Source: Escherichia coli
GTDB lineage: Bacteria; Pseudomonadota; Gammaproteobacteria; Enterobacterales; Enterobacteriaceae
Direction: 5' to 3' (one strand)
DNA: 64,000 bases
Assembly (NCBI RefSeq): GCF_029227855.1
Contig: NZ_CP074356.1
Part shown: piece by piece, positions 10,300 through 44,139 of the stretch
How the letters are laid out: every line of letters begins with the position of its first letter
How positions within the stretch are numbered: the stretch's first letter is position 1
Translations under genes and position numbers: made by a program
Notes under the pieces: generated by a model
The model's database searches: none
Told to the model about the DNA's origin: nothing
Seen by the model: the letters and a program-made list of their open reading frames with translations, nothing else

Positions 10300-10710
10300 A
10301 TGTCCAGACCAACTATCATCATTAACGACCTGGATGCCGAACGCATCGATATTCTGCTGGAGCAACCCGCCTATGCTGGTTTGCCAATCGCCGACGCGTT
10401 AAACGCAGAGTTGGATCGCGCCCAAATGTGTTCGCCAGAAGAGATGCCACACGACGTGGTGACAATGAACAGCCGGGTTAAATTCCGCAATCTTAGCGAT
10501 GGCGAAGTGCGTGTGCGCACGCTGGTGTATCCGGCAAAAATGACCGACAGCAATACTCAGCTTTCCGTTATGGCTCCGGTAGGTGCCGCACTGCTGGGGC
10601 TGCGCGTTGGCGATTCCATTCACTGGGAACTTCCGGGCGGCGTTGCAACCCACCTTGAAGTGCTGGAACTCGAATACCAGCCAGAAGCTGCTGGCGACTA
10701 CCTGCTTTAA
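10300..10710 (+). CDS. rnk: Regulator of nucleoside diphosphate kinase Rnk (GreA/GreB-like), 136 aa
   Basis: ORF 10213..10710; start taken at ATG 10300 ([28 protein letters not shown]...). Confidence 0.9.
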
Positions 10711-23076: not shown

Positions 23077-24238
<1,162 letters not shown>

Positions 24239-24239
<1 letters not shown>

Positions 24240-25096
24240 TATTTCACCTCGCGGGAAAGTAGCTTCCACCAGGCGTCGATGGTCGGGTTTTTCGCCAGCA
24301 TGACAAAGTCGATATCGCCATGCACTTTGCGCCAGCGCGCCGCCAGCGCCATCATCCGCACCGAATCCAGACCGTAGTCGATCAGGTTGTCGTCATCGAA
24401 CGGTTCATCGGACTCGTCCAGCAACGGCAGGATCACCTCACGCAGCGCCGCTTTGCTGGCGGGGACAGGTGCTGGCAGCAATTCTTCGGTCATCACCACC
24501 CGGCCAGAACGTCCGGCCACATATTTCAGCGACATCAAATGCTCGTCACGGCTGAAATCAGCCAGCGCATCCGCCACCATAAACGGTTTAATATCGCGCA
24601 TAAATGCGTCCGTTGCGGTGGTCATACAGCCAATGTGGGCATATACCCCGGTAATAATCAGCTGGTTACGTCCACTCTCTTTCAGCATTTGCTCCAGCGG
24701 GGAACGATGAAACGCGCTGTAGCGCCACTTCACCAGCACCGTGTCGTCGGCATCTGGCGTCAGGCGATCCACCACCTTTTGCTGTTCCGGCGAACGGGTC
24801 AGGCCAGGCCCCCACATATCATTCAACAGCGCCCGATCTTCATCGCTCTGCTCTTTCGGCTGGGCGGTGTAATAAACCGGGATATTGTGCTGTTTGCAGT
24901 AGTCGCGTAGTGCCGCAATATTCGCGATCACCTGCTCCATCATCGGGCAGTTCTCGCCCCAGAAGCTGACAAAATAGTCCTGCATATCATGGATTAACAA
25001 CGCGGCACGTTGCGGTTCAAAGGCCCAGTCAACTTTATTCTGCGGAATATCGTGAGACTCCGGCAGTGCGTAAGCCTGTAATTTTGGAATAGCCAT
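24239..25096 (-). CDS. entB: Isochorismatase / aryl carrier protein EntB, 285 aa
   Basis: ORF track 24239..25096, MAIPKLQAYALPESHDIPQNKVDWAFEPQRAALLIHDMQDYF...; C-terminal carrier domain (DNLIDYGLDSVRMMAL). Confidence 0.95.
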
Positions 25097-25109
25097 CGTG
25101 TTCTCTCCT

Positions 25110-26720
25110 TCAGGCTGATGCGCGTGACGCCAGCCACTGACGTAATTGTTTTTTATCGACTTTCCCGACCGCCGTCAGCGGAAGTGAATCCACACACTCC
25201 ACGCGATCCGGTAATTTAAATTCGGCAATACCCTGTTCACGCAGGAAACGACGCACCTGCACCGCGCGTAGAGGCTCTTTTACCACCAGATAAGCACAGC
25301 TTTTTTCGCCCATCAGCTCATCTTCCATACTCACCAGTGCGGCGTAGATCACCGCCGGATGGCGCAGCAGCAGGTTTTCGATCTCTTCGGCAGCGATCTT
25401 CTCGCCGCCACGGTTGATCTGATCTTTCTCGCGCCCCTGCACGGTGATGTACCCCTCTGGATCAATAGAGATCAGATCACCAGAACAGTAAAAACCGTTG
25501 GCATCAAAGGCGCTGGCATTGTGCTGCGGGCTTTTGTAATAGCCGCGGAAGGTGTACGGACCGCGCGTCATCAGGCGTCCGACTTCCCCTTGCGGCAGTG
25601 GATTTCCTTCGGCATCGGCAACCCACACTTCATCGTCCGGACACATTGGATAGCCCTGGGTATGGATTATTTTCTCCGCGCTATCATCAAGTCGGGTGTA
25701 GTTCACCAGTCCTTCCGCCATGCCGAATACCTGCTGTAACTGGCAGCCAATCTCTGCGGGAATACGCGCCGCAAGCGTGGCAGAAAGACGTGCACCACCG
25801 ACCTGTAACAGTTTCAGCGAGGCAAGCTGCGCCCGGCTTTCGCCTTCGGTCAGCGCCTGTAACCACAGGCTGACTGCGGGTGGCACCAGCGCGGTGACGT
25901 TCACCTGATGTTTTTCAATCAATGGGAAGCAGAGCGTGGCGCTGGGGTCGGCAGCCAGAACGACAGTGCCGCCAGCGAGAAATACGCCCAGCGATCCTGG
26001 CGAACTCATGGCGTAGTTATGAGCCGCCGGGATCGCGCACAGGTAGCGTGTCTGTTGTGTGAACTGACAAATCTCGACGCTACGACGCACGCTGTAGTAA
26101 TAGTCGTTATGAGTGCGCGGGATCAGTTTCGGTGTGCCGGTGGTGCCGCCGGAAAGCTGGAAATAGGCCACTTCATCAGCAGGTGACGGCGTGGCAGTAA
26201 AATCCTCAGCCGGATGGTTAATCGCATCCTGCAAATTATGCTCACCGCTGTCGTTGTGCAGTTGCACCACGCGAATGGAGGAATGCTCTGCAACAAATGT
26301 ATTGAGGAAATCATCTCCGCTAAACAGCGCATGCTGGCGATCGGCAATCAGTAACGCCGGTTCAATCTGGCTGGCATAGGCGTTCAGTTCACTACGCTGA
26401 TGGCTGAACAGCGCCAGCACCGGCGAAACGCCCAGTTTCAGCAGCGCGAAAAAAGTAATGTAAAGTTCAGCGACGTTACCCAGTTGTACCAGCGCAGTTT
26501 CACCAGGTTTAATGCCCTGACGGCGCAAACTACACGCGAGGTTATCCGCCGCCTGATTCAGCTCCCGGTAACTCAACTGCCGCTCGCCGTCGATGACCGC
26601 GATGCTGTCGCTTGCGGCATGACGGGTCAGAATGTCGGTCAGCGGCAAATCCTGCCAGTAGCCTTTTTCCCGATAGCGACGGGCAAACTCTTCCGGCCAG
26701 CGGGTGAATGGAATGCTCAT
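25110..26720 (-). CDS. entE: 2,3-dihydroxybenzoate-AMP ligase EntE, 536 aa
   Basis: ORF 25110..26726 (upstream GTG); start taken at ATG 26720 ([24 protein letters not shown]...); adenylation-domain motifs. Confidence 0.93.
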
Positions 26721-26729
26721 CCTCACTCC

Positions 26730-27905
<1,176 letters not shown>

Positions 27906-27933
27906 ATCATCCTCCACAAAATGATAAAGGCTT

Positions 27934-27953
27934 TAATAATGATTATCATTTAT
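27934..27953. promoter_or_regulatory. Fur box in the divergent entC / fepB promoter region
   Basis: TAATAATGATTATCATTTAT matches the Fur consensus GATAATGATAATCATTATC; lies between the divergent iron-regulated genes. Confidence 0.7.
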
Positions 27954-28093
27954 ATTTTCGGTCGCTAACCTAAAAGCAAACGCGCACTATGTCAACTCTT
28001 GAGGTAACGCAATCTGCAACTCGGGGTTGCATCTGGTTGTGGTTACAATGAAAATGAGAAGCATTAACTTCATTAATAACAGGAAGCTGATTT

Positions 28094-29050
28094 GTGAGAC
28101 TCGCCTCGCTCTACCGCAACGCCCTTCTATTAACAGGACTTTTGCTTTCAGGAATAGTCGCAGTTCAGGCCGCCGACTGGCCGCGTCAGATTACTGACAG
28201 CCGGGGCACTCATACCCTGGAAAGCCAGCCGCAGCGTATTGTTTCCACCAGCGTCACCCTGACTGGCTCACTGCTGGCGATTGATGCTCCGGTGATTGCC
28301 AGCGGCGCGACCACGCCGAATAACCGCGTCGCGGATGACCAGGGCTTTTTACGCCAGTGGAGCAAGGTGGCGAAAGAACGCAAACTGCAACGGCTCTATA
28401 TCGGCGAACCGAGCGCCGAAGCCGTTGCCGCGCAAATGCCGGATTTGATTTTAATTAGCGCAACCGGCGGGGATTCGGCGCTGGCGCTGTATGATCAGCT
28501 TTCCACCATCGCCCCGACATTAATCATCAATTACGACGACAAAAGCTGGCAGTCGCTGTTAACGCAACTTGGCGAAATTACCGGGCATGAGAAACAAGCG
28601 GCAGAGCGGATTGCACAGTTTGATAAGCAACTGGCAGCGGCGAAAGAGCAAATCAAATTACCGCCGCAGCCGGTCACTGCCATTGTCTATACCGCCGCTG
28701 CACACAGTGCCAATCTCTGGACGCCGGAATCAGCACAAGGGCAGATGCTGGAACAACTCGGCTTTACGTTGGCGAAATTGCCCGCAGGGTTAAACGCCAG
28801 CCAAAGCCAGGGCAAACGCCATGACATCATTCAGCTTGGTGGTGAAAATCTGGCTGCAGGGTTAAATGGCGAGTCACTATTCCTGTTCGCCGGTGATCAG
28901 AAAGATGCCGATGCTATTTATGCCAATCCACTGCTCGCGCACCTGCCCGCAGTACAAAACAAGCAGGTTTATGCGCTGGGAACCGAGACGTTCCGACTGG
29001 ATTACTACAGCGCCATGCAAGTGCTGGAACGACTTAAGGCGCTGTTTTAA
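28094..29050 (+). CDS. fepB: Ferric-enterobactin periplasmic binding protein FepB, 318 aa
   Basis: ORF track 28094..29050 (initiates at GTG), [38 protein letters not shown]... signal peptide plus substrate-binding fold. Confidence 0.9.
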
Positions 29051-29053
29051 GCA

Positions 29054-30304
29054 TTAACTGTCGGACGCTGCCACCTGCGGCGGCGTCTGGCGAAAACGTC
29101 GCAACTCCACCAGCACCAGCAACAACAACACGCCGATAATCAACAAACCAAAACCGCTCGCGCTTGCGGAAGCAACCGGTGTCATCATCGCGCCCAAACC
29201 GCCCAGCAGCGCCGCGCCTATGGCATCGCCCGTCACGTTTTGCGCCGTCCACAAACCGTTAATCCGCCCTAACATCGCTTCCGGGGTTTGCGTTTGCAGC
29301 ATTGTGTATTGCAGCAACGAACTAACCGCGCTCAGCCAGCCGAACAGCGCCAGACAAACCACGCCTAAAATCCACATCGGCATCAGGCCAAACAGACCAA
29401 TGGCGAGGAACGATCCCAGCGTGGAAAGCAGCATCAATAACCCTGGTCGCGCGCTATGTGCCAGCTTACCGCTGGTTAACGCGCCAATAGCCGCGCCGAG
29501 CGGGATCGCCGCATAGAGAAAACCAATCTGTGCCGCCGACATCTGCCAGTTGTCAGCCAGCGCCGGATACAGTACCCGCACCGCGCTCGCCATCGTCAAT
29601 AAACCACCCAGCAGCGCAATCCCTCCCACCAGCGGGCTGGCGAGCAGAAAACGAAATCCTGCCAGTAATGATTTCAACGGATGCTCACGCGGCTGCGGTG
29701 GCGGTGGCAACGCCGGAAGGCTTAACAACGGTAGCAAGGTAATAAACGTGCCCGCCGCCGCCAGCCCGTAGTTCCAGGCCACACCGCCGGTCGCCAGCAA
29801 TAAACCGCCAATCATAGGCGAAATCACCGACCCCAGACGCACGGTCAACATGGTGATCGCCCCGGCCTGCATTAAGTTTTCACGCCCTACCAGTGCAGGT
29901 GTCGCCGCCAGTAGCGCCGTAACGCCAAGCGATGCGAAAAAACCATCCCATAATCCGAGTAAATAGATTGCCAGCAAAGATGGCTCCGGCAGCAACGCGT
30001 TCAGGCACAGTCCAATGAAGCCAATGCCACAGGTGCCGCGCGCCAGCAAAATCACTTTTTTGCGCTCATACCGATCCGCCAGCACACCGCCGACCATCAG
30101 GCCAACAAACATCGCCCCGCCGGTCAGCGTTACCGAAAGCCCCACCTGCCAGGTAGAATGCGTCATCATCTGGATCTGCACCGGCACCGCGACGCCGAGC
30201 AAACCCAGAGACACAATTGAGATAAAACGAGCGAGGAATACTGCGCGAAACGCCGGGTGCGTTTTCAACAGGCTGAGGTTAAGCAGCCAGGATTGTTTAT
30301 TCAT
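29054..30304 (-). CDS. entS: Enterobactin exporter EntS (MFS), 416 aa
   Basis: ORF track 29054..30304, [43 protein letters not shown]... Confidence 0.93.
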
Positions 30305-30377
30305 TACAATGCCTTGCCATCAAATATTTTAAATACCTATTCTTAGGCTGCACATGCTAACATATCCAAATAAGATC

Positions 30378-30403
30378 GATAACGATAATTAATTTCATTA
30401 TCA
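30378..30403. promoter_or_regulatory. Fur box in the divergent entS / fepD promoter region
   Basis: GATAACGATAATTAATTTCATTATCA, a Fur-consensus-like AT-rich repeat between the divergent genes. Confidence 0.65.
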
Positions 30404-30414
30404 TGGAAGTTCGT

Positions 30415-31419
30415 ATGTCTGGTTCTGTTGCCGTGACACGCGCCATTGCCGTGCCCGGATTGCTGTTATTACTGATTATCGCGACGGCATTAAGCCTGCT
30501 CATTGGGGCAAAATCACTCCCCGCTTCCGTAGTGCTGGAGGCGCTCTCCGGCACCTGCCAGAGCGCCGACTGCACCATTGTGCTCGACGCCCGTCTGCCG
30601 CGCACCCTTGCCGGTTTACTGGCAGGCGGTGCGCTTGGGCTTGCCGGGGCGCTGATGCAAACCCTCACCCGAAACCCACTTGCCGACCCCGGCTTGCTTG
30701 GCGTGAACGCCGGAGCCAGCTTTGCCATTGTGCTGGGTGCGGCGCTGTTTGGTTACTCTTCCGCACAGGAACAACTGGCGATGGCCTTCGCCGGGGCGCT
30801 GGTGGCCTCATTGATTGTTGCCTTTACCGGCAGCCAGGGCGGCGGGCAGTTAAGTCCGGTGCGTTTAACCCTGGCGGGCGTGGCACTGGCGGCGGTGCTG
30901 GAAGGGCTGACCAGCGGCATCGCCCTGCTTAATCCTGACGTCTACGATCAGTTGCGTTTCTGGCAAGCCGGTTCGCTGGATATTCGCAATCTACATACCT
31001 TAAAAGTGGTGCTGATCCCGGTGCTGATCGCCGGAGCAACCGCGCTATTACTGAGCCGCGCGCTGAACAGTTTAAGCCTCGGCAGTGACACCGCGACGGC
31101 GCTGGGTAGTCGCGTGGCGCGCACACAGTTGATTGGTCTGCTGGCGATTACCGTGCTTTGTGGTAGTGCGACGGCGGTAGTTGGCCCGATTGCCTTTATT
31201 GGCCTGATGATGCCGCATATGGCACGTTGGTTGGTGGGTGCCGATCATCGCTGGTCGCTGCCCGTCACGCTGCTTGCTACCCCTGCCCTGCTGCTGTTTG
31301 CCGATATCATCGGGCGGGTGATTGTGCCCGGCGAACTGCGCGTTTCTGTAGTCAGTGCCTTTATTGGCGCACCGGTGCTGATCTTCCTCGTGCGACGTAA
31401 AACGCGAGGTGGCGCATGA
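30415..31419 (+). CDS. fepD: Ferric-enterobactin ABC transporter permease FepD, 334 aa
   Basis: ORF 30403..31419; start taken at ATG 30415 (MSGSVAVTRAIAVPGLLLLLIIATALSLLIGAK...). Confidence 0.9.
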   Translation: MSGSVAVTRAIAVPGLLLLLIIATALSLLIGAKSLPASVVLEALSGTCQSADCTIVLDARLPRTLAGLLAGGALGLAGALMQTLTRNPLADPGLLGVNAGASFAIVLGAALFGYSSAQEQLAMAFAGALVASLIVAFTGSQGGGQLSPVRLTLAGVALAAVLEGLTSGIALLNPDVYDQLRFWQAGSLDIRNLHTLKVVLIPVLIAGATALLLSRALNSLSLGSDTATALGSRVARTQLIGLLAITVLCGSATAVVGPIAFIGLMMPHMARWLVGADHRWSLPVTLLATPALLLFADIIGRVIVPGELRVSVVSAFIGAPVLIFLVRRKTRGGA

Positions 31420-32408
31420 TTTACGTCTCTCGCCGATTAATCATCACCTGTTTGCTGCTAATTACCGCCTGTGTGGTTGCAGGTATCTGGGGATTACGCA
31501 GCGGTGCCGTCACGCTGGAAACCTCGCAGATATTCGCCGCGCTGATGGGCGATGCGCCGCGCAGTATGACGATGGTGGTCACCGAATGGCGTTTACCACG
31601 CGTGCTGATGGCGCTGTTAATTGGCGCGGCTCTGGGCGTCAGCGGCGCGATTTTTCAGTCGCTGATGCGTAACCCGCTCGGCAGCCCTGACGTAATGGGC
31701 TTTAACACCGGGGCGTGGAGCGGCGTGCTGGTGGCGATGGTGCTGTTTGGTCAGGACCTGACGGCTATCGCCCTGGCAGCAATGGTGGGCGGCATTGTCA
31801 CCTCGCTGCTGGTCTGGCTGCTTGCCTGGCGTAACGGTATCGACACCTTTCGGTTAATTATTATCGGTATCGGTGTTCGCGCCATGCTGGTGGCCTTTAA
31901 TACCTGGTTGTTGCTGAAAGCGTCTTTAGAAACGGCGCTAACAGCGGGTTTGTGGAATGCCGGATCGCTCAACGGCCTGACGTGGGCAAAAACCTCGCCT
32001 TCCGCGCCCATCATTATATTGATGCTCATTGCCGCCGCCTTACTGGTACGCCGGATGCGCTTGCTGGAAATGGGCGATGATACCGCGTGTGCGTTGGGCG
32101 TCAGCGTCGAACGTTCGCGGCTGTTAATGATGCTGGTGGCAGTGGTGCTCACCGCTGCGGCAACGGCGCTTGCCGGGCCGATTTCCTTTATTGCTTTAGT
32201 CGCGCCACACATTGCCCGGCGCATTAGCGGCACCGCTCGCTGGGGGCTGACCCAGGCGGCGCTGTGCGGGGCGTTGTTACTGCTGGCGGCCGATCTCTGC
32301 GCCCAACAACTGTTTATGCCGTATCAACTTCCGGTTGGCGTCGTTACCGTCAGCCTCGGTGGTATTTACCTTATCGTCTTGTTAATTCAGGAGTCTCGCA
32401 AAAAATGA
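31416..32408 (+). CDS. fepG: Ferric-enterobactin ABC transporter permease FepG, 330 aa
   Basis: ORF track 31416..32408; ATGA start/stop overlap with fepD. Confidence 0.92.
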   Translation: MIYVSRRLIITCLLLITACVVAGIWGLRSGAVTLETSQIFAALMGDAPRSMTMVVTEWRLPRVLMALLIGAALGVSGAIFQSLMRNPLGSPDVMGFNTGAWSGVLVAMVLFGQDLTAIALAAMVGGIVTSLLVWLLAWRNGIDTFRLIIIGIGVRAMLVAFNTWLLLKASLETALTAGLWNAGSLNGLTWAKTSPSAPIIILMLIAAALLVRRMRLLEMGDDTACALGVSVERSRLLMMLVAVVLTAAATALAGPISFIALVAPHIARRISGTARWGLTQAALCGALLLLAADLCAQQLFMPYQLPVGVVTVSLGGIYLIVLLIQESRKK

Positions 32409-33220
32409 CCGAATCAGTAGCCCGTTTGCGTGGCGAACAGTTAACCCTCGGATATGGCAAATATACCGTTGCGGAAAATCTGACTGTAGAAATTCCTGAT
32501 GGTCACTTCACGGCAATTATCGGGCCAAATGGCTGCGGTAAATCCACGTTACTGCGTACTTTAAGCCGCCTGATGACGCCTGCTCACGGGCATGTCTGGC
32601 TGGATGGTGAGCACATTCAACATTACGCCAGTAAAGAGGTTGCACGCCGGATTGGCCTGTTGGCGCAAAATGCTACCACGCCGGGCGATATCACCGTGCA
32701 GGAGCTGGTGGCGCGTGGACGTTACCCGCATCAACCGCTGTTTACCCGCTGGCGCAAAGAGGATGAAGAAGCGGTAACGAAAGCGATGCAGGCCACGGGA
32801 ATCACTCATCTGGCAGATCAAAGCGTGGATACCCTTTCTGGCGGACAACGCCAGCGAGCGTGGATAGCAATGGTGCTGGCCCAGGAAACGGCAATTATGC
32901 TGCTCGATGAACCAACGACCTGGCTGGATATCAGTCATCAGATTGATTTGCTGGAACTGTTAAGCGAACTGAACCGCGAGAAAGGCTATACCCTGGCGGC
33001 GGTGCTGCACGATCTTAATCAGGCCTGTCGTTACGCCAGCCATTTGATTGCATTGCGGGAAGGGAAAATTGTTGCTCAGGGAGCGCCGAAAGAGATTGTC
33101 ACTGCTGAATTGATCGAGCGCATTTATGGTCTGCGCTGCATGATAATTGACGATCCGGTTGCCGGAACGCCGCTCGTGGTGCCGCTCGGACGAACGGCAC
33201 CTTCAACCGCAAATAGTTAA
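32405..33220 (+). CDS. fepC: Ferric-enterobactin ABC transporter ATPase FepC, 271 aa
   Basis: ORF 32264..33220; start taken at ATG 32405 (MTESVARLRGEQLTLGYGKY...); Walker A GPNGCGKST and LSGGQRQR signature; ATGA overlap with fepG. Confidence 0.92.
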   Translation: MTESVARLRGEQLTLGYGKYTVAENLTVEIPDGHFTAIIGPNGCGKSTLLRTLSRLMTPAHGHVWLDGEHIQHYASKEVARRIGLLAQNATTPGDITVQELVARGRYPHQPLFTRWRKEDEEAVTKAMQATGITHLADQSVDTLSGGQRQRAWIAMVLAQETAIMLLDEPTTWLDISHQIDLLELLSELNREKGYTLAAVLHDLNQACRYASHLIALREGKIVAQGAPKEIVTAELIERIYGLRCMIIDDPVAGTPLVVPLGRTAPSTANS

Positions 33221-34350
33221 ACTAAGTGCTCTTCCATCACGGCATCCTGTTTTCTGGATGCCATCGCATGGCGCAACAGCACGCCACCACAAGCCACCAT
33301 CCCGCCGATCATCGCAGAAAGGATCACAATAATCGCCTTACCCGGACCGTCTTTTTTCACTGGCAATGACGGGCTTAACTGATATTTAAACGGCGTAAAA
33401 TTCACATCGTTGATATTTGCTTTTGTTAACTGCTCAACAAGATACTGACGATTACGTAATTCACCGTTCAGTTCCGCAACGTCAGTAACCGCTTTTTCAA
33501 TTTCCAGTTTGCGTTCAATACCGTCTGCGCCGAGAGAAATAGAGAAATCGGGGTCATCTTTAACGGCCTGACCATTACTGTAAACGGGCTTTTTAATTCC
33601 TGCCGCGTTAGCAATGTCGAGTGAATAATTGAGGCGCTGAATGTTTGCATCAAGTTGATTTTTCGTTTTAATGCGGTCCTGAGCCAGTTTTTCTTTTTCA
33701 AACTGGGTTTTGATCTCCAGTTTATTACGGACGTTTTCTATCGACTCTTTCACCACCAACGCAGAGATATAATCGATATACCCTCTCAAAACGGTCTGCG
33801 CCTCTTCACTGGTTGGCGCGGTAAAACTTAGCGTCCAGGAGTTATACAGTGACGGTTCATCTTTTTTCTTACTGGCATTGTCATCAACCGCTTTCATTTT
33901 TTCGCTCAATGCGACAATTGCGCGATGCAAATCCAGTTCGTCGATTTTCGCCTCTTTTAATTGGTCCATCACATAAGGTGTTGAGCGCAGGTACTCTTCC
34001 AGCAAGCTAACCGACTGAAACTTCTTGATAAACAGGTTAAATGCTTCTGTACGATCAATTTTGATATCCAGATCCAGCACACGAAGCTTAGTGAATGTTT
34101 TCTCAAGCGCCTGCCACTGAACAGGTTCTGGAGGCGTGACAACCGCCACGCTGGTCCATTTTTGCGGCAGGATGAAAGAGATCAGTAAACCTGCGCAGGC
34201 AAATGCAAAAATGACCGCCATGACCGTTTTTTTGGCCCGCCATAAAACTGCGATTAGATTAAGTAAATCAATTTCATTATTACTGGGCGACGCCAGAGGA
34301 TACTCGGGAAAATGAGCGTCACTTCCCTGTTTAATATTCAGTGATGACAT
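33217..34350 (-). CDS. fepE: FepE, Wzz-family polysaccharide co-polymerase (O-antigen chain-length regulator), 377 aa
   Basis: ORF track 33217..34350, MSSLNIKQGSDAHFPEYPLASPSNNEIDLLNLIAVLWRAKK...; two-TM Wzz architecture. Confidence 0.9.
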   Translation of the reverse strand: MSSLNIKQGSDAHFPEYPLASPSNNEIDLLNLIAVLWRAKKTVMAVIFAFACAGLLISFILPQKWTSVAVVTPPEPVQWQALEKTFTKLRVLDLDIKIDRTEAFNLFIKKFQSVSLLEEYLRSTPYVMDQLKEAKIDELDLHRAIVALSEKMKAVDDNASKKKDEPSLYNSWTLSFTAPTSEEAQTVLRGYIDYISALVVKESIENVRNKLEIKTQFEKEKLAQDRIKTKNQLDANIQRLNYSLDIANAAGIKKPVYSNGQAVKDDPDFSISLGADGIERKLEIEKAVTDVAELNGELRNRQYLVEQLTKANINDVNFTPFKYQLSPSLPVKKDGPGKAIIVILSAMIGGMVACGGVLLRHAMASRKQDAVMEEHLV

Positions 34351-34565
34351 GGGGTATAACCTGAAAATGAGTCCAATAGGGGGAAATCTCCACGGCGCTC
34401 ACTTTACCAGTTGGTGAGAATTATCCGAAGCTGAAGTTTGTAAATTCCTTCCACTGAATGCAACATTCACTCTATTTAAGAGAAATATCCACCAAATCCA
34501 TAAATTAAATAAATGATAAACCCATAATTATTTCCTGTAATTATGGGTTTATCGATAATATTAAT

Positions 34566-37500
34566 TTACCTGTTTAGCGTAGCGCGAATAATCGGCCCAA
34601 TTTTTTCAAACGCCCCTGGAGAGATAATATCCACATGCGCACAATCCTGACGATAGATATCCAGCTCCGCAATCCACGGCGACCAGGCGCGTTCGGGATT
34701 CATACCTTCCTGAAGCGTGCGTTCAGCAACAAACAGCGTCGCTTTACCGTCAAACGGTACACTATGAGCAGTCGTCAGCAGGCGCACAGCATCAGCGTAG
34801 TTGCCTTCAATGGTGGTAAACAACTCCGTTGAAGTACTTCCCTGCTGTGCCGCCAGGAAGGCCTCGCGCTCGCGGTTAATCTCCGCCAGCACTTCCGGGT
34901 CCAGGCCATTAGCCTCTTTTTCCTGCCAGTTTTGCGTTTCTGGCGGCCAGGTATCCAGCAAGCCAAAAAATGCCACCTGTTCGCCACGGGCACGCAGCCG
35001 CGCCGCAATACCCTGCGCCAGCGTACCGCCCAGCGAATAACCCAGCAGGTAATAAGGGCCGTGCGGTTGATGCTCAAGTAACGTTGCCAGATGCGCTTCG
35101 CAGACTTCATCCAGATTTGCCGCGGTCTGCATGGGGCCATTGGGGCGCGGCGACTGAATGCCGATAATCGACCATTGTGGATCGAGATAACGCGAGAGCA
35201 CGCTGAACTGCCAGGCAAAACCGGACGCAGGATGGAAACAAAACAGCGTCGGGCCATTACCTTCACGCAACGGCAGAATGGTTTCGAATCCCATGCGCCG
35301 GGAGCTGTCTTCTTCACCATCAATAATCGTTGCCAGTTTGGCGACAGTTGACGCGACCATCACCTGCCCCGGCGTCACCTGGCGGGTAAACTGCCGACTT
35401 AACTGCGCAGCCAGTTTCATTGCCAGTAGCGAATGACCGCCAAGCGCGAAGAAATCAGCATCGGCATCCTGCACGTCACAACCCAGCAACGACGAGAATG
35501 CCGCGGCGATAATCGTTTCACTGCCCGCTTTCGGCGCACGCCCCGGCGCTTGTGCCTTCAGTTCAGGCAACGGTAAGGCTTTGCGATCCAGCTTGCCGTT
35601 GGCGCTAAGCGGCAACTGCGGAAGTTGCAGCAGAACCACGGGCACCATATGCGGTGGCAATGTTTCGCGCAACTGCGCCTGCAATGCAGTGGTATCCAAC
35701 GGCAGGCCTGATTGCGACACCAGATACCCAACCAACTGACGCGCATCGCCTCCCGTTGCGGCAGCCTGGTTAATAACGCAGGCGTGGGTCACGGCCTGTT
35801 CAACGTCCGGCAGCGCCTGCATCACGCGGTCGATTTCGCCCAGTTCGATACGCTGCCCGCGAATTTTTAGCTGATCGTCACTGCGCCCGAGGTACTCCAC
35901 CGCGCCGTTATCCAGCCAGCGGGCAACGTCTCCGGTACGGTACATCCGTTCACCTGGGGCAAAAGGATCGGCAATAAAGCGGCTGGCGGTCAGATCGGGG
36001 CGTCCGAGATAGCCCTGCGCCAGTTGTATGCCAGTGAGATAGAGATCACCCGCCACACCTGGCGGCACCGGATGCATCATCGCATCAAGAATACGCAGGC
36101 CCGTATTCCACACCGGATAACCAATCGGCACACTACTGCCGCGCACCTGTGCCAGTTCCTCGCCAAAAGCCGGATACCAGCTGACATCTACCGCCGCTTC
36201 CGTCGGGCCATATAGATTATGCAACGGCACGCTGGTTAACTGTTGCCATTCGCGGCATAAATCAGCGGGTAAGGCCTCACCACTACAGAAAACCTGTTTC
36301 AACGTCGCGCAATTCTGGCGAGCGGTTTGCGGCGTCAGCGATGCAACAAATGCCGCCAGCATCGACGGCACAAAGTGCGTAGTCGTTACGCCATATTCGG
36401 CAAAGAATTGCTGCATAGCGAGCGGGTCGCGGTGCGCTTCCGGTTCAGCCATCACCAGTTTAGCCCCGGCAATAAACGGCCAGAAAAACTCCCACACCGA
36501 GACATCAAAACTGCACGGCGTTTTTTGGGCAACGACATCTTCGCCTGTAAGCGGGTAGTGGTTTTGCATCCAAAGCAGGCGGTTAACGATAGCCGTCTGC
36601 CCGACCATTACCCCTTTCGGCCTGCCGGTGGAGCCAGAGGTAAAGATGATATAAGCCGTGTGGTGCGGTTGTGAAAGTTTCAGCGGCGCACTGCCCTGCG
36701 GTGTAAGCGGGGCGTTATAGCAAAGGCTGGTTAAATCTGGAACATCGGCAAAGCGCGGCAGTTGATCGTCGGTGGTGATTAACAGCGACGGACGCGCATC
36801 TTCCAGCATCATTTTCAGGCGATCGTCCGGATAGCCGGTATCCAGCGGTAACCAGGCCGCACCAGCCTCAACAATTGCATGTAGCGCCAGAGTCAAAAAG
36901 ACCGAGCGCGGTAGCGCCACCGCCACGCTGTCGCCTGGTTTAACGCCGCGCTCACGCAGCAGATTCGCCAGCGCCACCACCTGCTCGCGCATTTCCCGAT
37001 AGCTAAACTGGTAACTCGCATCAACCAGCGCCGGAGCATGCGGTGTTTTTGCCGCTTGTTCTGCCACCAGCGCGCTCAGCGTGGTTTCTGGAATCTCAAC
37101 CTGAGTGGCGTTGATCTGCGCCAGCTGCACATATTCACCTGGCAGCATAATATCGACATCGCCGCACAACAGCGCCGGATCCGCGGCGAACTGGGCAATC
37201 AGCATTTTCAGGCGTTCAGCATGCTGGATTAACGTTGGCTCATCGTAACGCTGTTTATTGGCGAGGATCTCAATACTCAAATCACCGTGTTCATCCGGGA
37301 ACAGGGCCAGTTCAAGGTCATTAACCGGACCGGTTGCCAGGGTATGGGTTTGCGTCTGAACACCAGGAATATCCAGTTGGTAATCAAATACCTTGATATT
37401 GAGTACCGGACCGAACAGCGGTTCCTCTCCTGCCGCTCGCCCGCTGTCACGGACAATTTGTTCGGCATCGTAACGTTGATAACGACGCATTTTTTTCAGT

Positions 37501-38447
37501 TGTGCTGCCAGTCGGGTTGCCAGTTCCGGCAGCGTTTCTTGTGCCGCAATGTGAATCCCCAACGGCAAAACGTTGAGCACGGGTCCGGTAGCCGTCAGCG
37601 CCGCCGAGCCCAGTCGACGCATAAAGATAAATCCGGCGGCGTAGTCCATGCGATTGCACAATCGCCCCAGCCACAAGGCTGCCAACGCAAGTGCTAAATC
37701 GGTACGCTGCACACCTGAAAGTTGCGTAGCCAGCTGGCGGAATTCCCCGTCGGTAAACTCCAGTTTCAGGCGCAGAATATCTGCCGAGACGCTGCGCCCC
37801 GGTAAAGGTGCCGGAGAAAGTGACGCGGGCGGCGGCAGTTGACGACGCTGTTCCGTCCAGAATGCCGCATCACGCTGCCAGGCTTCGCTTTCGCGGTATT
37901 GCTGGTACTCTTCCACGACATCAGCGAAAGGCGTAAACGGCGAAGCAGGCGTTGGTTCGCCACGCAGCCATGCGCAGTAAATATTGGCGATCTGGCGGGT
38001 AATGGCCGGGAAACTGAAGCCATCGACCAGCAAATGGTGATAACGCTGATACCAGTACCAGCGGTTATCTGCCACCTGAATGAGCTGATGAAAGACCAGC
38101 GGTTTGCCGCTGTCGGCACGTAGATTTTGCTGTAAATCCGCCTGCATTAATGCCCGCGCAGTACCGTGCGGATCAATGTTGGTTCGCAGGTCGATAATTT
38201 CTGGCAGTTCGAACGTCAGCGCATCATCGACCCACTGCCAGACTTCGCCGTTATCTTCCGTAAAACGCATCCGCAGCGTATCTGCTTGCGCTATTCCGGC
38301 AACCACCGCGCGGGCCAGTAGTGGCGCATCAACCTCTCCGGTTAACTCAACGTAATGCGCCACGCTCCAGGCGGAGGGTAAATCCGACAGTTTTTCTGCC
38401 ATCCAGATGCCGGGCTGTGCGGCGACCAAAGGTAAATGCTGGCTCAT
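34566..38447 (-). CDS. entF: Enterobactin synthase component F (NRPS: C-A-PCP-TE), 1293 aa
   Basis: ORF track 34566..38447, MSQHLPLVAAQPGIWMAEKLSD...; adenylation motifs (FTSGSTGRPKGV), PCP (GGHSLLA), thioesterase GYSLGG. Confidence 0.96.
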   Translation of the reverse strand: MSQHLPLVAAQPGIWMAEKLSDLPSAWSVAHYVELTGEVDAPLLARAVVAGIAQADTLRMRFTEDNGEVWQWVDDALTFELPEIIDLRTNIDPHGTARALMQADLQQNLRADSGKPLVFHQLIQVADNRWYWYQRYHHLLVDGFSFPAITRQIANIYCAWLRGEPTPASPFTPFADVVEEYQQYRESEAWQRDAAFWTEQRRQLPPPASLSPAPLPGRSVSADILRLKLEFTDGEFRQLATQLSGVQRTDLALALAALWLGRLCNRMDYAAGFIFMRRLGSAALTATGPVLNVLPLGIHIAAQETLPELATRLAAQLKKMRRYQRYDAEQIVRDSGRAAGEEPLFGPVLNIKVFDYQLDIPGVQTQTHTLATGPVNDLELALFPDEHGDLSIEILANKQRYDEPTLIQHAERLKMLIAQFAADPALLCGDVDIMLPGEYVQLAQINATQVEIPETTLSALVAEQAAKTPHAPALVDASYQFSYREMREQVVALANLLRERGVKPGDSVAVALPRSVFLTLALHAIVEAGAAWLPLDTGYPDDRLKMMLEDARPSLLITTDDQLPRFADVPDLTSLCYNAPLTPQGSAPLKLSQPHHTAYIIFTSGSTGRPKGVMVGQTAIVNRLLWMQNHYPLTGEDVVAQKTPCSFDVSVWEFFWPFIAGAKLVMAEPEAHRDPLAMQQFFAEYGVTTTHFVPSMLAAFVASLTPQTARQNCATLKQVFCSGEALPADLCREWQQLTSVPLHNLYGPTEAAVDVSWYPAFGEELAQVRGSSVPIGYPVWNTGLRILDAMMHPVPPGVAGDLYLTGIQLAQGYLGRPDLTASRFIADPFAPGERMYRTGDVARWLDNGAVEYLGRSDDQLKIRGQRIELGEIDRVMQALPDVEQAVTHACVINQAAATGGDARQLVGYLVSQSGLPLDTTALQAQLRETLPPHMVPVVLLQLPQLPLSANGKLDRKALPLPELKAQAPGRAPKAGSETIIAAAFSSLLGCDVQDADADFFALGGHSLLAMKLAAQLSRQFTRQVTPGQVMVASTVAKLATIIDGEEDSSRRMGFETILPLREGNGPTLFCFHPASGFAWQFSVLSRYLDPQWSIIGIQSPRPNGPMQTAANLDEVCEAHLATLLEHQPHGPYYLLGYSLGGTLAQGIAARLRARGEQVAFFGLLDTWPPETQNWQEKEANGLDPEVLAEINREREAFLAAQQGSTSTELFTTIEGNYADAVRLLTTAHSVPFDGKATLFVAERTLQEGMNPERAWSPWIAELDIYRQDCAHVDIISPGAFEKIGPIIRATLNR

Positions 38448-38662
38448 TGTGCCTCCTGCAACTGGGTGAAATTCGCCGGTGTCAGAGTACGCCAGTGGGC
38501 TTCAAGCCACTGCTGGCAGGACGCCTGTGACTGCGGCTGACACACAACGACCCAGCCTGCCGGTAAGGCGCATTGTTGCGGCCACAGACTGAATTGCCCC
38601 TGCGCATTGCGCAAAATGTTAAACGCTCCCTGCGGATCATCGAAGGGATTACTGAATGCCAT
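38444..38662 (-). CDS. ybdZ: MbtH-like protein YbdZ, 72 aa
   Basis: ORF 38444..38668 (upstream TTG); start taken at ATG 38662 (MAFSNPFDDPQGAFNILRNAQGQFSLWPQQ...); overlaps the entF start by 4 nt. Confidence 0.88.
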   Translation of the reverse strand: MAFSNPFDDPQGAFNILRNAQGQFSLWPQQCALPAGWVVVCQPQSQASCQQWLEAHWRTLTPANFTQLQEAQ

Positions 38663-38664
38663 AT

Positions 38665-39867
38665 TCAACTCCTGTCATGGAAAAGTGGTTGCCAGAGGTC
38701 GATTAGCCCCTGCATCAAGCCACCGCGCCAACAAAGCGCATCATGTCCGCCGTCAACCTGACGCCAGAAAATGGATTCTTTTATGGGGTGTAATTGCGCA
38801 TACAGCGCCTGATTGGCCCGCATGATCATCGGCTCGCGAATACCCGCTTCCAGCATAATGCGCAGACCTTCGGCGCTAACTTCACCAGCTTTAAGTTGCT
38901 CAAGTAAAACACCTTCTTGCTGCCCGCCCCGATGAGGCCACCAGTACGATCCTGACTGGCTTAATACACAGCCAAAGCGTTCAGGCCAGTGCAGTCCGGC
39001 ATACAGCGCGGAAAGTCCACCAAAACTCTGCCCGGCGACCACGGTGCGATCGGCGCGATCGCTAAAAGGGGCAATAGCTTTCACCAGGGGTAATAACTCT
39101 TGCTGTACTGCCAGCCAGAAATCCGCATTACACGGCAGTTCGTGGGCGCGGTGCGTGGTGTCAATAGCGTCGATCAACACATACACGGCGGGAGGAAGTT
39201 GCTGACGATGGGTCAACGAAGTCAGCACAGGCCAGACAGGCATACTCTGCGCCCAAAATTCGCCATCGAGCAAAACTGCCAGCGGGCGTTCTCCTGCTGT
39301 TGCATCGCCGGTGGTAAAAATCCATACACGGCGTGAATTTTTCAACCGCTCACTTTTCCAGATAATTTCTTTGGCAGGCGTTTCTGGCGCTTGCGGACAA
39401 TCCCATCCCGGTTGTAGGGGCGCTTGCGGCATTTCGAGTGCAGAAACAGCGTGCCCTCGCCCGCCTTTCCAGCTTTGTGGATTCAGCGGATCGGCTATCG
39501 CCTGGGGCAATAGTTTTCGCCAGCCTTCACGTAATTCGAGGCGATCGGGGGATGGTGCAGAAAAAATGTCATCGCGTTCGGTGGGAATAAAACAGTAGCT
39601 GCCGCGCCAGTTGGCATTAAGTTGTGTCGTCCACTGCCAGACGTTGGTACCTGCAATTCGCTGCATCGACTGGGGCTGGCTGTTCTGATGGTGATCGGTC
39701 ACACCAGTGATGTAGACCCATACGCGCTTTATCGTCGAGTATTCTTCAGAACCTTGGGGATCACGCCACCAGAAAGTGACCTCAAACATTTCGTCATTCA
39801 GACGCTGCCATTCCGGGCCATGTTTCGACTGCCACCAGCTCTCACTTCCTACTTTTAACGCCGTCAC
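38665..39867 (-). CDS. fes: Enterochelin esterase Fes, 400 aa (start at GTG 39867; the internal ATG at 39789, MFEVTFWW..., would give 374 aa)
   Basis: ORF track 38665..39867, ...MFEVTFWWRDPQGSEEYSTIKRVWVYITGV...GQSFGG esterase motif; start codon choice uncertain. Confidence 0.88.
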   Translation of the reverse strand: MTALKVGSESWWQSKHGPEWQRLNDEMFEVTFWWRDPQGSEEYSTIKRVWVYITGVTDHHQNSQPQSMQRIAGTNVWQWTTQLNANWRGSYCFIPTERDDIFSAPSPDRLELREGWRKLLPQAIADPLNPQSWKGGRGHAVSALEMPQAPLQPGWDCPQAPETPAKEIIWKSERLKNSRRVWIFTTGDATAGERPLAVLLDGEFWAQSMPVWPVLTSLTHRQQLPPAVYVLIDAIDTTHRAHELPCNADFWLAVQQELLPLVKAIAPFSDRADRTVVAGQSFGGLSALYAGLHWPERFGCVLSQSGSYWWPHRGGQQEGVLLEQLKAGEVSAEGLRIMLEAGIREPMIMRANQALYAQLHPIKESIFWRQVDGGHDALCWRGGLMQGLIDLWQPLFHDRS

Positions 39868-39913
39868 ACCATAACCCCATGTTTACTGTGAAATTTTTCA
39901 TTGATTGCAGAAA

Positions 39914-39943
39914 TATATTGATAATATTATTGATAACTATTTG
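39914..39943. promoter_or_regulatory. Fur box(es) in the divergent fes / fepA promoter region
   Basis: ATATTGATAATATTATTGATAACTATTTGC: overlapping Fur-consensus hexamer repeats between the divergent iron-regulated genes. Confidence 0.7.
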
Positions 39944-40109
39944 CATTTGCAATAGCGTAATGGCGCGCCGTGGGAAGCGCGGACATTAATTAACCAACTG
40001 CACTGCGTGTCTTTCAGGATCAAAGGTTTTCGCGGTAGCGGGATGCGTCGTGTTGATGACGACCATGCCCGACAGTTGCAATTCGTGGCAAAAATGCAGG
40101 AATAAAACA

Positions 40110-42350
40110 ATGAACAAGAAGATTCATTCCCTGGCCTTGTTGGTCAATCTGGGGATTTATGGGGTAGCACAGGCACAAGAGCCAACCGATACTCCTGTTT
40201 CACATGACGATACCATTGTCGTTACCGCCGCCGAGCAGAACTTGCAGGCACCTGGCGTTTCGACCATCACCGCAGATGAAATCCGCAAAAACCCGGTTGC
40301 CCGCGATGTGTCGGAGATCATCCGTACCATGCCAGGCGTTAACCTGACCGGTAACTCCACCAGTGGTCAGCGTGGGAATAACCGACAGATTGATATTCGC
40401 GGCATGGGTCCGGAAAACACGCTGATTTTGATTGACGGCAAGCCGGTAAGCAGCCGTAACTCGGTGCGTCAGGGCTGGCGTGGCGAGCGCGATACCCGTG
40501 GTGATACCTCCTGGGTGCCACCTGAAATGATTGAACGTATTGAAGTTCTGCGTGGTCCGGCAGCTGCGCGTTATGGCAACGGCGCGGCGGGCGGCGTGGT
40601 TAACATCATTACCAAAAAAGGCAGTGGTGAGTGGCACGGCTCGTGGGACGCATATTTCAATGCGCCAGAACATAAAGAGGAAGGTGCCACCAAACGCACT
40701 AACTTTAGCCTCACCGGTCCGCTGGGCGACGAATTCAGCTTCCGCTTGTATGGCAACCTCGACAAAACTCAGGCTGACGCGTGGGATATCAACCAGGGCC
40801 ATCAGTCCGCGCGTGCCGGAACGTATGCCACGACGTTACCAGCCGGGCGCGAAGGGGTGATCAATAAAGATATTAACGGCGTGGTGCGCTGGGACTTCGC
40901 ACCATTACAATCGCTGGAACTGGAAGCAGGTTACAGCCGCCAGGGTAACCTGTATGCGGGCGATACCCAGAACACCAACTCTGACTCCTATACCCGCTCG
41001 AAATATGGCGATGAAACCAACCGTCTGTATCGCCAGAACTACTCGCTGACCTGGAACGGCGGCTGGGATAACGGCGTGACCACCAGCAACTGGGTGCAGT
41101 ACGAACACACCCGTAACTCGCGTATTCCGGAAGGTCTGGCGGGCGGTACCGAAGGGAAATTTAACGAAAAAGCGACACAGGATTTCGTCGATATCGATCT
41201 CGATGACGTGATGCTGCACAGCGAAGTTAACCTGCCGATTGATTTCCTCGTTAACCAGACGCTGACGCTGGGTACGGAGTGGAATCAGCAGCGGATGAAG
41301 GACTTGAGTTCCAACACCCAGGCGCTCACCGGGACGAATACCGGCGGCGCTATTGATGGCGTGAGTGCCACCGACCGTAGCCCGTATTCAAAAGCAGAAA
41401 TTTTCTCGCTGTTTGCCGAAAACAATATGGAGCTGACTGACAGCACCATCGTAACGCCGGGGCTGCGTTTCGATCATCACAGCATTGTTGGCAATAACTG
41501 GAGTCCGGCTCTAAACATATCGCAAGGTTTAGGCGATGACTTCACGCTGAAAATGGGCATTGCCCGTGCTTATAAAGCGCCGAGTCTGTACCAGACTAAC
41601 CCAAACTACATTCTCTACAGTAAAGGTCAGGGCTGCTATGCCAGCGCGGGCGGCTGCTATCTGCAAGGTAATGATGACCTGAAAGCGGAAACCAGCATCA
41701 ACAAAGAGATTGGTCTGGAGTTCAAACGCGACGGCTGGCTGGCGGGTGTGACCTGGTTCCGTAACGATTATCGCAATAAGATTGAAGCGGGCTATGTGGC
41801 TGTAGGGCAAAACGCAGTCGGCACCGATCTCTATCAGTGGGATAACGTACCGAAAGCGGTGGTTGAAGGTCTGGAAGGATCGTTAAACGTACCGGTTAGC
41901 GAAACGGTGATGTGGACCAATAACATCACTTATATGCTGAAGAGTGAAAACAAAACCACGGGCGACCGTTTGTCGATCATCCCGGAGTATACGTTGAACT
42001 CAACGCTGAGCTGGCAGGCACGGGAAGATTTGTCGATGCAAACAACCTTCACCTGGTACGGCAAGCAGCAGCCGAAGAAGTACAACTATAAAGGTCAGCC
42101 AGCGGTTGGACCGGAAACCAAAGAAATCAGTCCGTACAGCATTGTGGGTCTGAGCGCGACCTGGGATGTGACGAAGAATGTCAGTCTGACCGGCGGCGTG
42201 GACAACCTGTTCGACAAACGTTTGTGGCGTGCAGGTAATGCCCAGACCACGGGCGATCTGGCAGGAGCCAACTATATCGCCGGTGCCGGGGCGTATACCT
42301 ATAACGAGCCGGGACGTACGTGGTATATGAGCATTAATACTCACTTCTGA
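40110..42350 (+). CDS. fepA: Ferric-enterobactin TonB-dependent outer-membrane receptor FepA, 746 aa
   Basis: ORF 40050..42350 (upstream GTG); start taken at ATG 40110 (MNKKIHSLALLVNLGIYGVAQAQE... signal peptide); TonB box DTIVVTA; C-terminal aromatic residue. Confidence 0.95.
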   Translation: MNKKIHSLALLVNLGIYGVAQAQEPTDTPVSHDDTIVVTAAEQNLQAPGVSTITADEIRKNPVARDVSEIIRTMPGVNLTGNSTSGQRGNNRQIDIRGMGPENTLILIDGKPVSSRNSVRQGWRGERDTRGDTSWVPPEMIERIEVLRGPAAARYGNGAAGGVVNIITKKGSGEWHGSWDAYFNAPEHKEEGATKRTNFSLTGPLGDEFSFRLYGNLDKTQADAWDINQGHQSARAGTYATTLPAGREGVINKDINGVVRWDFAPLQSLELEAGYSRQGNLYAGDTQNTNSDSYTRSKYGDETNRLYRQNYSLTWNGGWDNGVTTSNWVQYEHTRNSRIPEGLAGGTEGKFNEKATQDFVDIDLDDVMLHSEVNLPIDFLVNQTLTLGTEWNQQRMKDLSSNTQALTGTNTGGAIDGVSATDRSPYSKAEIFSLFAENNMELTDSTIVTPGLRFDHHSIVGNNWSPALNISQGLGDDFTLKMGIARAYKAPSLYQTNPNYILYSKGQGCYASAGGCYLQGNDDLKAETSINKEIGLEFKRDGWLAGVTWFRNDYRNKIEAGYVAVGQNAVGTDLYQWDNVPKAVVEGLEGSLNVPVSETVMWTNNITYMLKSENKTTGDRLSIIPEYTLNSTLSWQAREDLSMQTTFTWYGKQQPKKYNYKGQPAVGPETKEISPYSIVGLSATWDVTKNVSLTGGVDNLFDKRLWRAGNAQTTGDLAGANYIAGAGAYTYNEPGRTWYMSINTHF

Positions 42351-42388
42351 TGCTAACGTCAGATTGTTGACAAAGTGCGCGTAGTTCA

Positions 42389-42487
42389 TGCCGGATGCGG
42401 CGTGAACGCCTTATCCGGCCTACAAAAATCTTGCCAATTCAATATATTGCAGGACCACGTAGGCCTGATAAGCGTAGCGCATCAGGC
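42389..42487. repeat. REP/BIME element (two palindromic units) in the fepA-entD spacer
   Basis: GCCGGATGCGGCGTGAACGCCTTATCCGGCCTAC and GTAGGCCTGATAAGCGTAGCGCATCAGGCA are canonical enterobacterial REP palindromic units. Confidence 0.85.
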
Positions 42488-42524
42488 AGTTTTGCGTTTG
42501 TCATCAGTCTCTAATATGGTCGAC

Positions 42525-43145
42525 ATGAAAACTACGCATACCGCCCTCCCCTTTGCCGGAAATACGCTGCATTTTGTTAAGTTCGATCCGGCGAGTTTTT
42601 GTGAGCAGGATTTACTCTGGCTGCCACACTACGCGCAACTGCAACACGCTGGACGTAAACGTAAAACAGAGCATTTAGCCGGACGGATCGCTGCAGTTTA
42701 TGCGCTGCGGGAATATGGCTATAAATGTGTGCCCGCAATCGGCGAGCTACGCCAACCTGTGTGGCCTGCGGGGGTATACGGCAGTATTAGCCACTGTGGG
42801 GCTACGGCATTAGCCGTGGTATCTCGTCAACCGATTGGCATTGATATTGAAGAAATTTTTTCTGCGCAAACAGCGGCAGAATTGACAGACAACATTATTA
42901 CACCAGCAGAACACGAGCGACTCGCAGAATGCGGTTTAACCTTTTCTCTGGCGCTGACACTGGCATTTTCCGCCAAAGAGAGCGCATTTAAGGCAAGCAA
43001 GATACAGGCCGCTCAAGGTTTTCTGGATTATCAGATAATTAGCTGGAATAAACAGCAGATCATCATTCGACTAGAGGATGAGCAGTTTGCTGTGCACTGG
43101 CAGATAAAAGAAAAAATAGTCATAACGCTGTGCCAACACGATTAA
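42525..43145 (+). CDS. entD: Enterobactin synthase 4'-phosphopantetheinyl transferase EntD, 206 aa
   Basis: ORF 42375..43145 reads through the REP element and is over-extended; start taken at ATG 42525 (MKTTHTALPFAGNTLHFVKFDPASF...); an ATG 9 nt upstream (42516, MVDMKTT...) is an alternative. Confidence 0.85.
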   Translation: MKTTHTALPFAGNTLHFVKFDPASFCEQDLLWLPHYAQLQHAGRKRKTEHLAGRIAAVYALREYGYKCVPAIGELRQPVWPAGVYGSISHCGATALAVVSRQPIGIDIEEIFSAQTAAELTDNIITPAEHERLAECGLTFSLALTLAFSAKESAFKASKIQAAQGFLDYQIISWNKQQIIIRLEDEQFAVHWQIKEKIVITLCQHD

Positions 43146-43266: not shown

Positions 43267-43419
43267 CTACTTCTTCGGTTCGTAAGCGAGAACAGCCTTA
43301 AACTCAATATTACGTTCCTTCACCGTAAACTCACACAGCGAGTCGCGGACCAGAAGCGTAAATCCCAGCACCGTTAAACACAGCACTATGACTGCCACAA
43401 GGGCATATTTCGTCAGCAT
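43267..43419 (-). CDS. hokE: Hok-family membrane toxin, copy A, 50 aa (Arg at position 25)
   Basis: ORF 43267..43455; Hok start at ATG 43419 with GGAGG Shine-Dalgarno: [50 protein letters not shown]. Confidence 0.8.
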
Positions 43420-43519
43420 GTTTATATTGCCTCCATGCGAAGAAGGGACTACCATCCGAGTTGTTCAGGTTTGGGTAGGTAGCCCCAGGGTTGATAGAAA
43501 TATCGTCCTGGGGCTTCAT
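43331..43519 (-). CDS. mok-like overlapping reading frame of hok copy A, 62 aa
   Basis: ORF track 43331..43519 ([20 protein letters not shown]...), starts upstream of hok and overlaps it out of frame, the arrangement known for mok in hok/sok loci. Confidence 0.4.
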
Positions 43520-43670
43520 CTTTCCAGACCTCAGAGTTAACCTGAAACCGGAAAGCTTCAGGCACCCGCCGTTATCTTACCCTTCCTCAGCAAAATAGCT
43601 GTTTATTTATACAGTGAATCCTGTTTCGGACTTCTGTTGGCAAAACTGATCATTGCCCTTAAAACGACAT

Positions 43671-44139
43671 CGCCCGCAGCCATTGCTGACCGCGGGCGAA
43701 AGTGTAAAGCAGGTGCCTTACCACCCTGACCTGACAACCGGATATGCGGGGATTACTCCCCGCACAACGGCTACTTCTTCGGTTCGTAAGCGAGAACAGC
43801 CTTAAACTCAATATTACGTTCCTTCACCGTAAACTCACACAGCGAGTCTCCGACCAGAAGCGTAAATCCCAGTACCGTCAAACACAGCACTATGACTGCC
43901 ACAAGGGCATATTTCGTCAGCATGTTTATATTGCCTCCATGCGAAGAAGGGACTACCATCCAAATTGTCTGGTTTGGAGTGGCAGCCCCAGGGTTGATAG
44001 AAATATCTCCTGGGGCTTCATCTTTCCAGACCTCAGAGTAAACCTGAAACCGGAAAGCTTCAGGCACCCGCCGTTATCTTACCCTTCCTCAGCAAAATGG
44101 CTGTTTATTTATACAGTGAGTCCTGTTTCGGACTTCTCA
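43671..44139 (-). other. hok/sok-type type I toxin-antitoxin locus, copy B (hokE-like), boundaries approximate
   Basis: Tandem direct repeat of copy A with a 504-bp period; same stem-loops; differs by several substitutions and small indels in the mok/leader region. Confidence 0.8.
43771..43923 (-). CDS. hokE: Hok-family membrane toxin, copy B, 50 aa (Gly at position 25)
   Basis: ORF 43771..44067; Hok start at ATG 43923 with GGAGG Shine-Dalgarno: [50 protein letters not shown]. In this copy the upstream frame is fused in-frame to hok. Confidence 0.8.

Follow-up and report, generated by a model that had tools for sequence, protein, structure and literature searches.

The enterobactin (ent/fep/fes) gene cluster in a 64,000-nucleotide stretch of Escherichia coli DNA (hereinafter, the window; contig NZ_CP074356.1 of assembly GCF_029227855.1) contains a set of AT-rich motifs that, judged by their sequence, are almost certainly operators of the Fur repressor. 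A preliminary description of this DNA had placed Fur-like AT-rich repeats at 27934-27953 (entC/fepB), 30378-30403 (entS/fepD) and 39914-39943 (fes/fepA), and all three are present at those places; they score above chance, are identical to DNA that has been footprinted or found bound by Fur in chromatin immunoprecipitation (ChIP) experiments, and are conserved. The cluster, however, appears to have four operator regions rather than three: the range 27934-27953, worded as if a single box served both entC and fepB, corresponds to the operator of entC, and the operator of fepB, which went unlisted, lies separately at 28044-28071. The suggestion that normal iron regulation is conserved holds for the entC, fepD/entS and fes/fepA operators but not fully for the fepB operator and leader, where the window and K-12 are separated by a 186-bp presence/absence polymorphism. 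The system itself is already known in full detail, and the small additions made here are the fourth operator and the short-allele form of the fepB operator together with its leader.

The preliminary description had proposed a scan with a Fur matrix, and such a scan was run on both strands of the 64 kb. The 19-bp matrix was derived from 14 experimentally confirmed K-12 sites, none of which belongs to the ent cluster (fhuA, gpmA, nohA, yoeA, cir, exbB, ryhB, sodA, fecI, fecA, fhuF, fadD, yahA and oppA), with the site centres taken from Table 4 of Chen et al. (2007, PMC2189734) and made current via the annotated start of each gene; the 14 sequences align as AATGATAATnATTATCATT. The three places claimed come out as ranks 1-3, with the best 19-mers at 27932-27950 (25.2 bits), 30381-30399 (21.3 bits) and 39929-39947 (17.4 bits). 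The training sites, scored with each left out in turn, span 17.1-29.8 bits, and therefore all three top sites fall within the range of validated sites and none drops below threshold. The coordinates originally given take in 17 bp of the best entC 19-mer, the whole fepD/entS site, and 15 bp of the best fes/fepA 19-mer along with the entire secondary site at 39917-39935. The sites serve well as a positive control for motif reading in the window. Below the top three rank 27938-27956 (15.4 bits; offset by 6 bp from the best entC site), 30375-30393 (11.6 bits), 27920-27938 (10.0 bits; a 12-bp offset in the entC operator), a match inside fepE at 34260-34278 (9.5 bits), and the two fepB 19-mers, 28053-28071 (9.3 bits) and 28047-28065 (9.1 bits); most of these secondary matches lie in the same operators, at 6-bp offsets.

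Matches of at least 17 bits, of which three are observed, are expected 0.04 times per window according to 200 dinucleotide-preserving shuffles, and matches of at least 9 bits about twice. When each intergenic region was shuffled locally, with its composition matched, the observed maximum was reached in 0, 2 and 6 of 2000 trials. Several of the gel-shift sites used for training had first been selected by means of a model to which ent sites had contributed, a potential circularity for which reason the matrix was rebuilt from cir, sodA, fecI and fecA only, that is, from classically footprinted sites outside the ent cluster; the same top three were recovered. Positive-scoring sites start at 27920, 27932, 27935 and 27938 (entC), 28047 and 28053 (fepB), 30375, 30381 and 30387 (fepD/entS), and 39917, 39920, 39923 and 39929 (fes/fepA). 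Such clusters, in which overlapping sites are spaced 6 or 3 bp apart and leave room for several dimers, are the pattern described for Fur operators (Chen et al., 2007, PMC2189734), and the 6-bp register, found in all four regions, fits the overlapping-dimer model.

The classical consensus GATAATGATAATCATTATC separates the sites poorly and was dropped as a discriminator in favour of the matrix. With up to three mismatches allowed, it finds only the fepD/entS site (16 of 19 positions at 30384-30402), the entC operator reaching 15 of 19 at 27935-27953 and the fes/fepA operator 13 of 19, which is level with many matches in coding regions. A segment of the fepG coding sequence (31853-31871) matches the consensus at 15 of 19 positions yet scores 4.3 bits with the matrix, and counting consensus matches is therefore misleading in this window. 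The match in the 5' coding part of fepE belongs to a weak Fur-like site at 34260-34284, with a further 5.5 bits at an offset of +6, that is identical in E. whittamii; it was considered as an operator and rejected, being located within coding sequence and within the chance expectation.

The preliminary description also called for a comparison with the footprinted sites of K-12. The DNase I footprints are listed in Table 3 of Chen et al. (2007, PMC2189734) in NC_000913.2 coordinates and were shifted by +777 to the current version; the shift was verified by the matrix centres at 27941, 30390 and 39938, which reproduce exactly the offsets given in Table 4 of the same paper, namely 36 bp from the entC start codon, 25 bp from the start of fepD and 86 bp from that of entS, and 172 bp from the start of fepA. 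Three of the four K-12 footprints, those of entC, fepD-entS and fepA-fes, are found in the window base for base. The putative entC (entCEBAH) operator, 27911-27959, is an exact copy of the 49-bp K-12 footprint, with the core 27932-27950 reading TTTAATAATGATTATCATT. The operator apparently shared by fepDGC and entS, 30365-30433, is an exact copy of the 69-bp K-12 footprint, primary and secondary protection combined, and the entire 110-bp intergenic region is 100% identical to those of K-12 and CFT073; its motif cluster spans 30375-30405, with the core 30381-30399 reading AACGATAATTAATTTCATT and, besides the site at 30375-30393, a flanking site at 30387-30405 (5.2 bits). The likely shared operator of fes and fepA, 39912-39959, is an exact copy of the 48-bp K-12 footprint in an intergenic region of equal length (242 bp) that has a single mismatch, at 39891, outside the operator; in addition to the core it contains sites at 39917-39935 (7.5 bits) and 39923-39941 (3.9 bits). 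All four operators, the fepB one included, sit in divergent intergenic regions, 25-172 bp from start codons. In K-12, the fepA-fes bidirectional operator was reportedly characterized by Hunt et al. in 1994 and Escolar et al. in 1998, and that of fepDGC-entS (ybdA) by Christoffersen et al. in 2001 and Lavrrar et al. in 2002; the fepB-entC region is said to have been analysed by Brickman et al. in 1990, and the fepB operator also by Lavrrar and McIntosh in 2003.

For in vivo occupancy, the literature offers evidence from the CFT073 strain, which equals the window across the operators, the fepB region included: its entS/fepD spacer is identical, its entC/fepB spacer differs by one base (28091), and its fes/fepA spacer by five bases, all outside the footprint. 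The Fur ChIP-seq summits of CFT073 at 666892, 664482 and 654906 (Banerjee et al., 2020, PMC7157518, supplementary tables) map to window positions 27971, 30381 and 39926, respectively. In the fur mutant of CFT073, RNA levels increase 676-fold for entC, 388-fold for fes, 274-fold for fepA, 79-fold for fepD, 21-fold for fepB, 9.8-fold for entD and 4.9-fold for fepE; derepression amounts to 128- to 676-fold across the entCEBAH operon and to 294-fold for entF (PMC7157518).

Over 27600-40200, the window has 100% identity to the chromosome of JNEC-KY178, an E. coli strain of human clinical origin from Japan, and 95-99% identity to nearly all complete E. coli genomes. Identical copies of the footprint segments occur in 5293 (entC), 4980 (fepD-entS) and 4951 (fes-fepA) of the 5426 complete E. 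coli genomes; in the others they are mostly found at 95-99% identity, and 10-37 genomes have no match. A single exact-pattern scan of species-representative genomes yielded E. albertii, E. whittamii and a divergent Escherichia lineage, in which the scores of the entC and fepB boxes equal those in the window or in K-12; the same holds for the fepD/entS box in the two loci that are long enough to include it. The 49-bp entC footprint has an identical copy in E. albertii and in E. whittamii. In the entC-fepB spacers of four Escherichia species, substitutions concentrate between the two operators, which are themselves invariant except that the outer part of the entC footprint has a single substitution and a gap of one base.

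So what is the status of the fepB operator, the only one in which the window departs from K-12? The short-allele form of this operator, at 28044-28071, is located about 115 bp from that of entC and overlaps a TACAAT hexamer (28044-28049). The 31-bp K-12 footprint is shared over its first 23 bp, TACAATGAAAATGAGAAGCATTA, which occupy 28044-28066. Beyond this point K-12 reads TTGATGGA followed by the 186-bp segment, whereas the window reads ACTTCATT, with the fepB start codon 27 bp past the junction; the junction, 28066/28067, falls inside the footprint, which is why the window retains no more than these 23 bp. As a result of this replacement, the second fepB 19-mer changes from AATGAGAAGCATTATTGAT (15.4 bits) in K-12 to AATGAGAAGCATTAACTTC (9.3 bits) in the window, such that the short allele has a predicted best fepB site weaker by 6 bits and a fepB leader (28050-28093) shorter by 186 nt.

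The polymorphism itself is common and has been catalogued previously. The 186-bp segment of K-12 contains the inverted pair of BoxC/PIT/TMECO triplex-forming motifs listed as #7 and #8 for MG1655 in Table 1 of Holder et al. (2015, PMC4666352), who showed that intergenic variation is concentrated at such loci. The long, K-12 form is found in 2755 of the 5426 complete E. coli genomes (about 51%) and the short form in most of the others (about 49%), including O157:H7, ST131 and CFT073. The short form is present also in E. albertii and the divergent Escherichia lineage, and E. whittamii has an intermediate form, in which flanks of the K-12 type enclose a short hairpin instead of the two motifs; given this distribution across Escherichia species, both forms are old. 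Thus, the fepB operator and leader of K-12, on which all footprinting work has been done, represent only about half of E. coli, and K-12-based accounts of fepB regulation should be checked before they are applied to short-allele strains.

It is tempting to speculate on functional consequences. Among the ent/fep genes that were looked up, fepB alone lacks 5' sequence conservation between CFT073 and MG1655, and it still belongs to the direct Fur regulon (PMC7157518). Derepression of the FepB protein, as measured by proteomics, is 15-fold in CFT073 as against 360-fold in MG1655. We considered this gap as an effect of the fepB allele and rejected the attribution, given that FepA, FepC and ExbD differ in the same direction. 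That the short control region, if the difference matters functionally, would leave FepB less tightly repressed or differently translated than in K-12-type strains is a tentative proposition and, on present evidence, an unlikely one; should it be true, this strain, about half of E. coli, and E. albertii would share a natural regulatory polymorphism within a textbook regulon.

A different view of the same region is that entC and fepB are both controlled from the one box at 27934-27953, as the initial wording implied, and that 28044-28071 is not a working operator in the short allele. Consistent with this view, the fepB site scores 9.1-9.3 bits compared to 15.4 in K-12, the whole spacer in CFT073 has a single ChIP-seq summit that, at 27971, is closer to the entC box, and fepB is the least derepressed of the first genes of the operons (21-fold vs 79- to 676-fold). 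Sites 115 bp apart are nevertheless beyond the resolution of ChIP-seq, and in K-12 two separate stretches of the fepB-entC region are protected (Chen et al., 2007, PMC2189734, citing Brickman et al., 1990). Moreover, the starts of both fepB 19-mers are among the 23 footprinted base pairs that are kept, the segment 28039-28066 does not vary among four Escherichia species, unlike the spacer upstream of it, and the distance from the entC box to the fepB TACAAT hexamer downstream, about 100 bp, is more than simple occlusion could span. We therefore consider control from one shared box to be quite improbable. Another possibility is that the AT-rich tracts are mainly targets of H-NS, Fis, IHF or another regulator of the Fur family (Zur) rather than of Fur itself; AT-rich intergenic DNA often binds H-NS and Fis, and there may be additional binders, but it is a Fur-specific matrix that ranks the three sites first, the DNA on which Fur footprints and Fur ChIP were obtained is identical to that of the window, and the derepression, as high as several hundred-fold, is specific to fur mutants, so that this explanation has very little chance of being correct. 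The weakest of the alternatives, a chance resemblance of AT-rich promoter DNA to a Fur box, can point to the composition of the intergenic regions (GC 0.31-0.42) and to the likeness between the Fur consensus and the -10 and -35 hexamers, and a promoter scanner matches the boxes themselves, but it is in effect already refuted by the rarity of such scores in the local shuffles, the identity to footprinted DNA and the ChIP summits located on the boxes.

The assignment of all four motifs to Fur is therefore preferred, and several observations have to be set against it. The binding and expression data come from K-12 and CFT073 and are carried over to this strain by identity. The fur gene, which is near-universal in E. 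coli, is not part of the 64-kb window. At 9 bits, the fepB site is below the validated range (17-30 bits) and within the reach of window-wide chance, so that its assignment is based on homology to the K-12 footprint, not on the score. Furthermore, the only consensus promoter hexamer pairs that the scan finds overlap the AT-rich boxes, which is weak evidence. The assignment of promoters from consensus promoter scans was rejected, the matches not being independent of the AT-rich sequence of the boxes.

Under this assignment, the cluster would operate as follows. When iron is sufficient, Fe2+-Fur dimers would bind overlapping 19-bp sites of the AATGATAATnATTATCATT type in a 6-bp register, and dimers positioned on different faces of the helix would block the promoters (promoter occlusion, which is the accepted model in the literature). 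Binding at the four control regions is predicted to switch off six units, entCEBAH, fepB, entS, fepDGC, fes-ybdZ-entF(-fepE) and fepA-entD, with a single operator acting on both divergent promoters at entS/fepD and likewise at fes/fepA, and separate operators acting on the entC and fepB promoters. When iron is scarce, Fur would leave the DNA, and synthesis, export and uptake of the siderophore would be turned on together. The enterobactin system of this clinical isolate thus seems to keep the canonical iron switch, and the reading of motifs in the window can be considered reliable.

The gene coordinates are those of the RefSeq annotation of JNEC-KY178, transferred to the window. The cluster is that of K-12 in the opposite orientation, with all genes annotated as intact and no pseudogene flags. 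The presumed target of the entC operator is entH-A-B-E-C (the entCEBAH operon; 23077-27905, minus strand), and that of the fepB operator is fepB (28094-29050, plus strand). The shared fepD/entS operator would control entS (29054-30304, minus strand) and fepD-G-C (the fepDGC operon; 30415-33220, plus strand). The two predicted targets of the fes/fepA operator are the fes-ybdZ-entF(-fepE) operon (33217-39867, minus strand), comprising entF-ybdZ-fes (34566-39867) and fepE (33217-34350), and the fepA-entD operon (40110-43145, plus strand), comprising fepA (40110-42350) and entD (42525-43145). A search of Rfam with the three intergenic control regions produced no match to an RNA family.

Directly downstream of entF and upstream of fepE, an AT-rich hairpin with a 16-bp stem and a T-rich tail is found on the minus strand (34515-34553). 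This hairpin looks like a terminator, which is consistent with the drop of derepression from 294-fold for entF to 4.9-fold for fepE in the CFT073 fur mutant. In the fepA-entD spacer, the segment 42425-42466 matches the Rfam family ES036 (CssrF), a small RNA, with a score just above the gathering score (42.2 vs 37.6 bits).

Several features outside the control regions deserve mention. Within 9434-10300, a copy of IS200C separates rnk (coding sequence, 10300-10710) from its conserved leader element (Rfam RF01771, 9434-9542), having been inserted between the two; the insertion includes the STnc490/art200 RNA (9548-9671) and tnpA (9681-10139), and CFT073 has no insertion at this place. A second, inverted copy of IS200C is located at 48443-49034 between ybdG and pheP (tnpA, 48443-48901; STnc490, 48911-49034). 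The inverted pair brackets about 38 kb, including the whole enterobactin cluster, and recombination between the two copies could therefore invert this segment; the gene order is still collinear with that of K-12. The hokE/sokE toxin-antitoxin locus (43267-44069) is present in two tandem copies, with hokE at 43267-43419 and 43771-43923 and Rfam sok matches at 43411-43567 and 43915-44069, whereas K-12 has a single hokE/sokE copy followed by IS186. Finally, the right end of the window (59735-64000), downstream of cusRS, contains a vgrG gene of type VI secretion, a DcrB-related gene and the beginning of a gene for an Rhs-repeat toxin.

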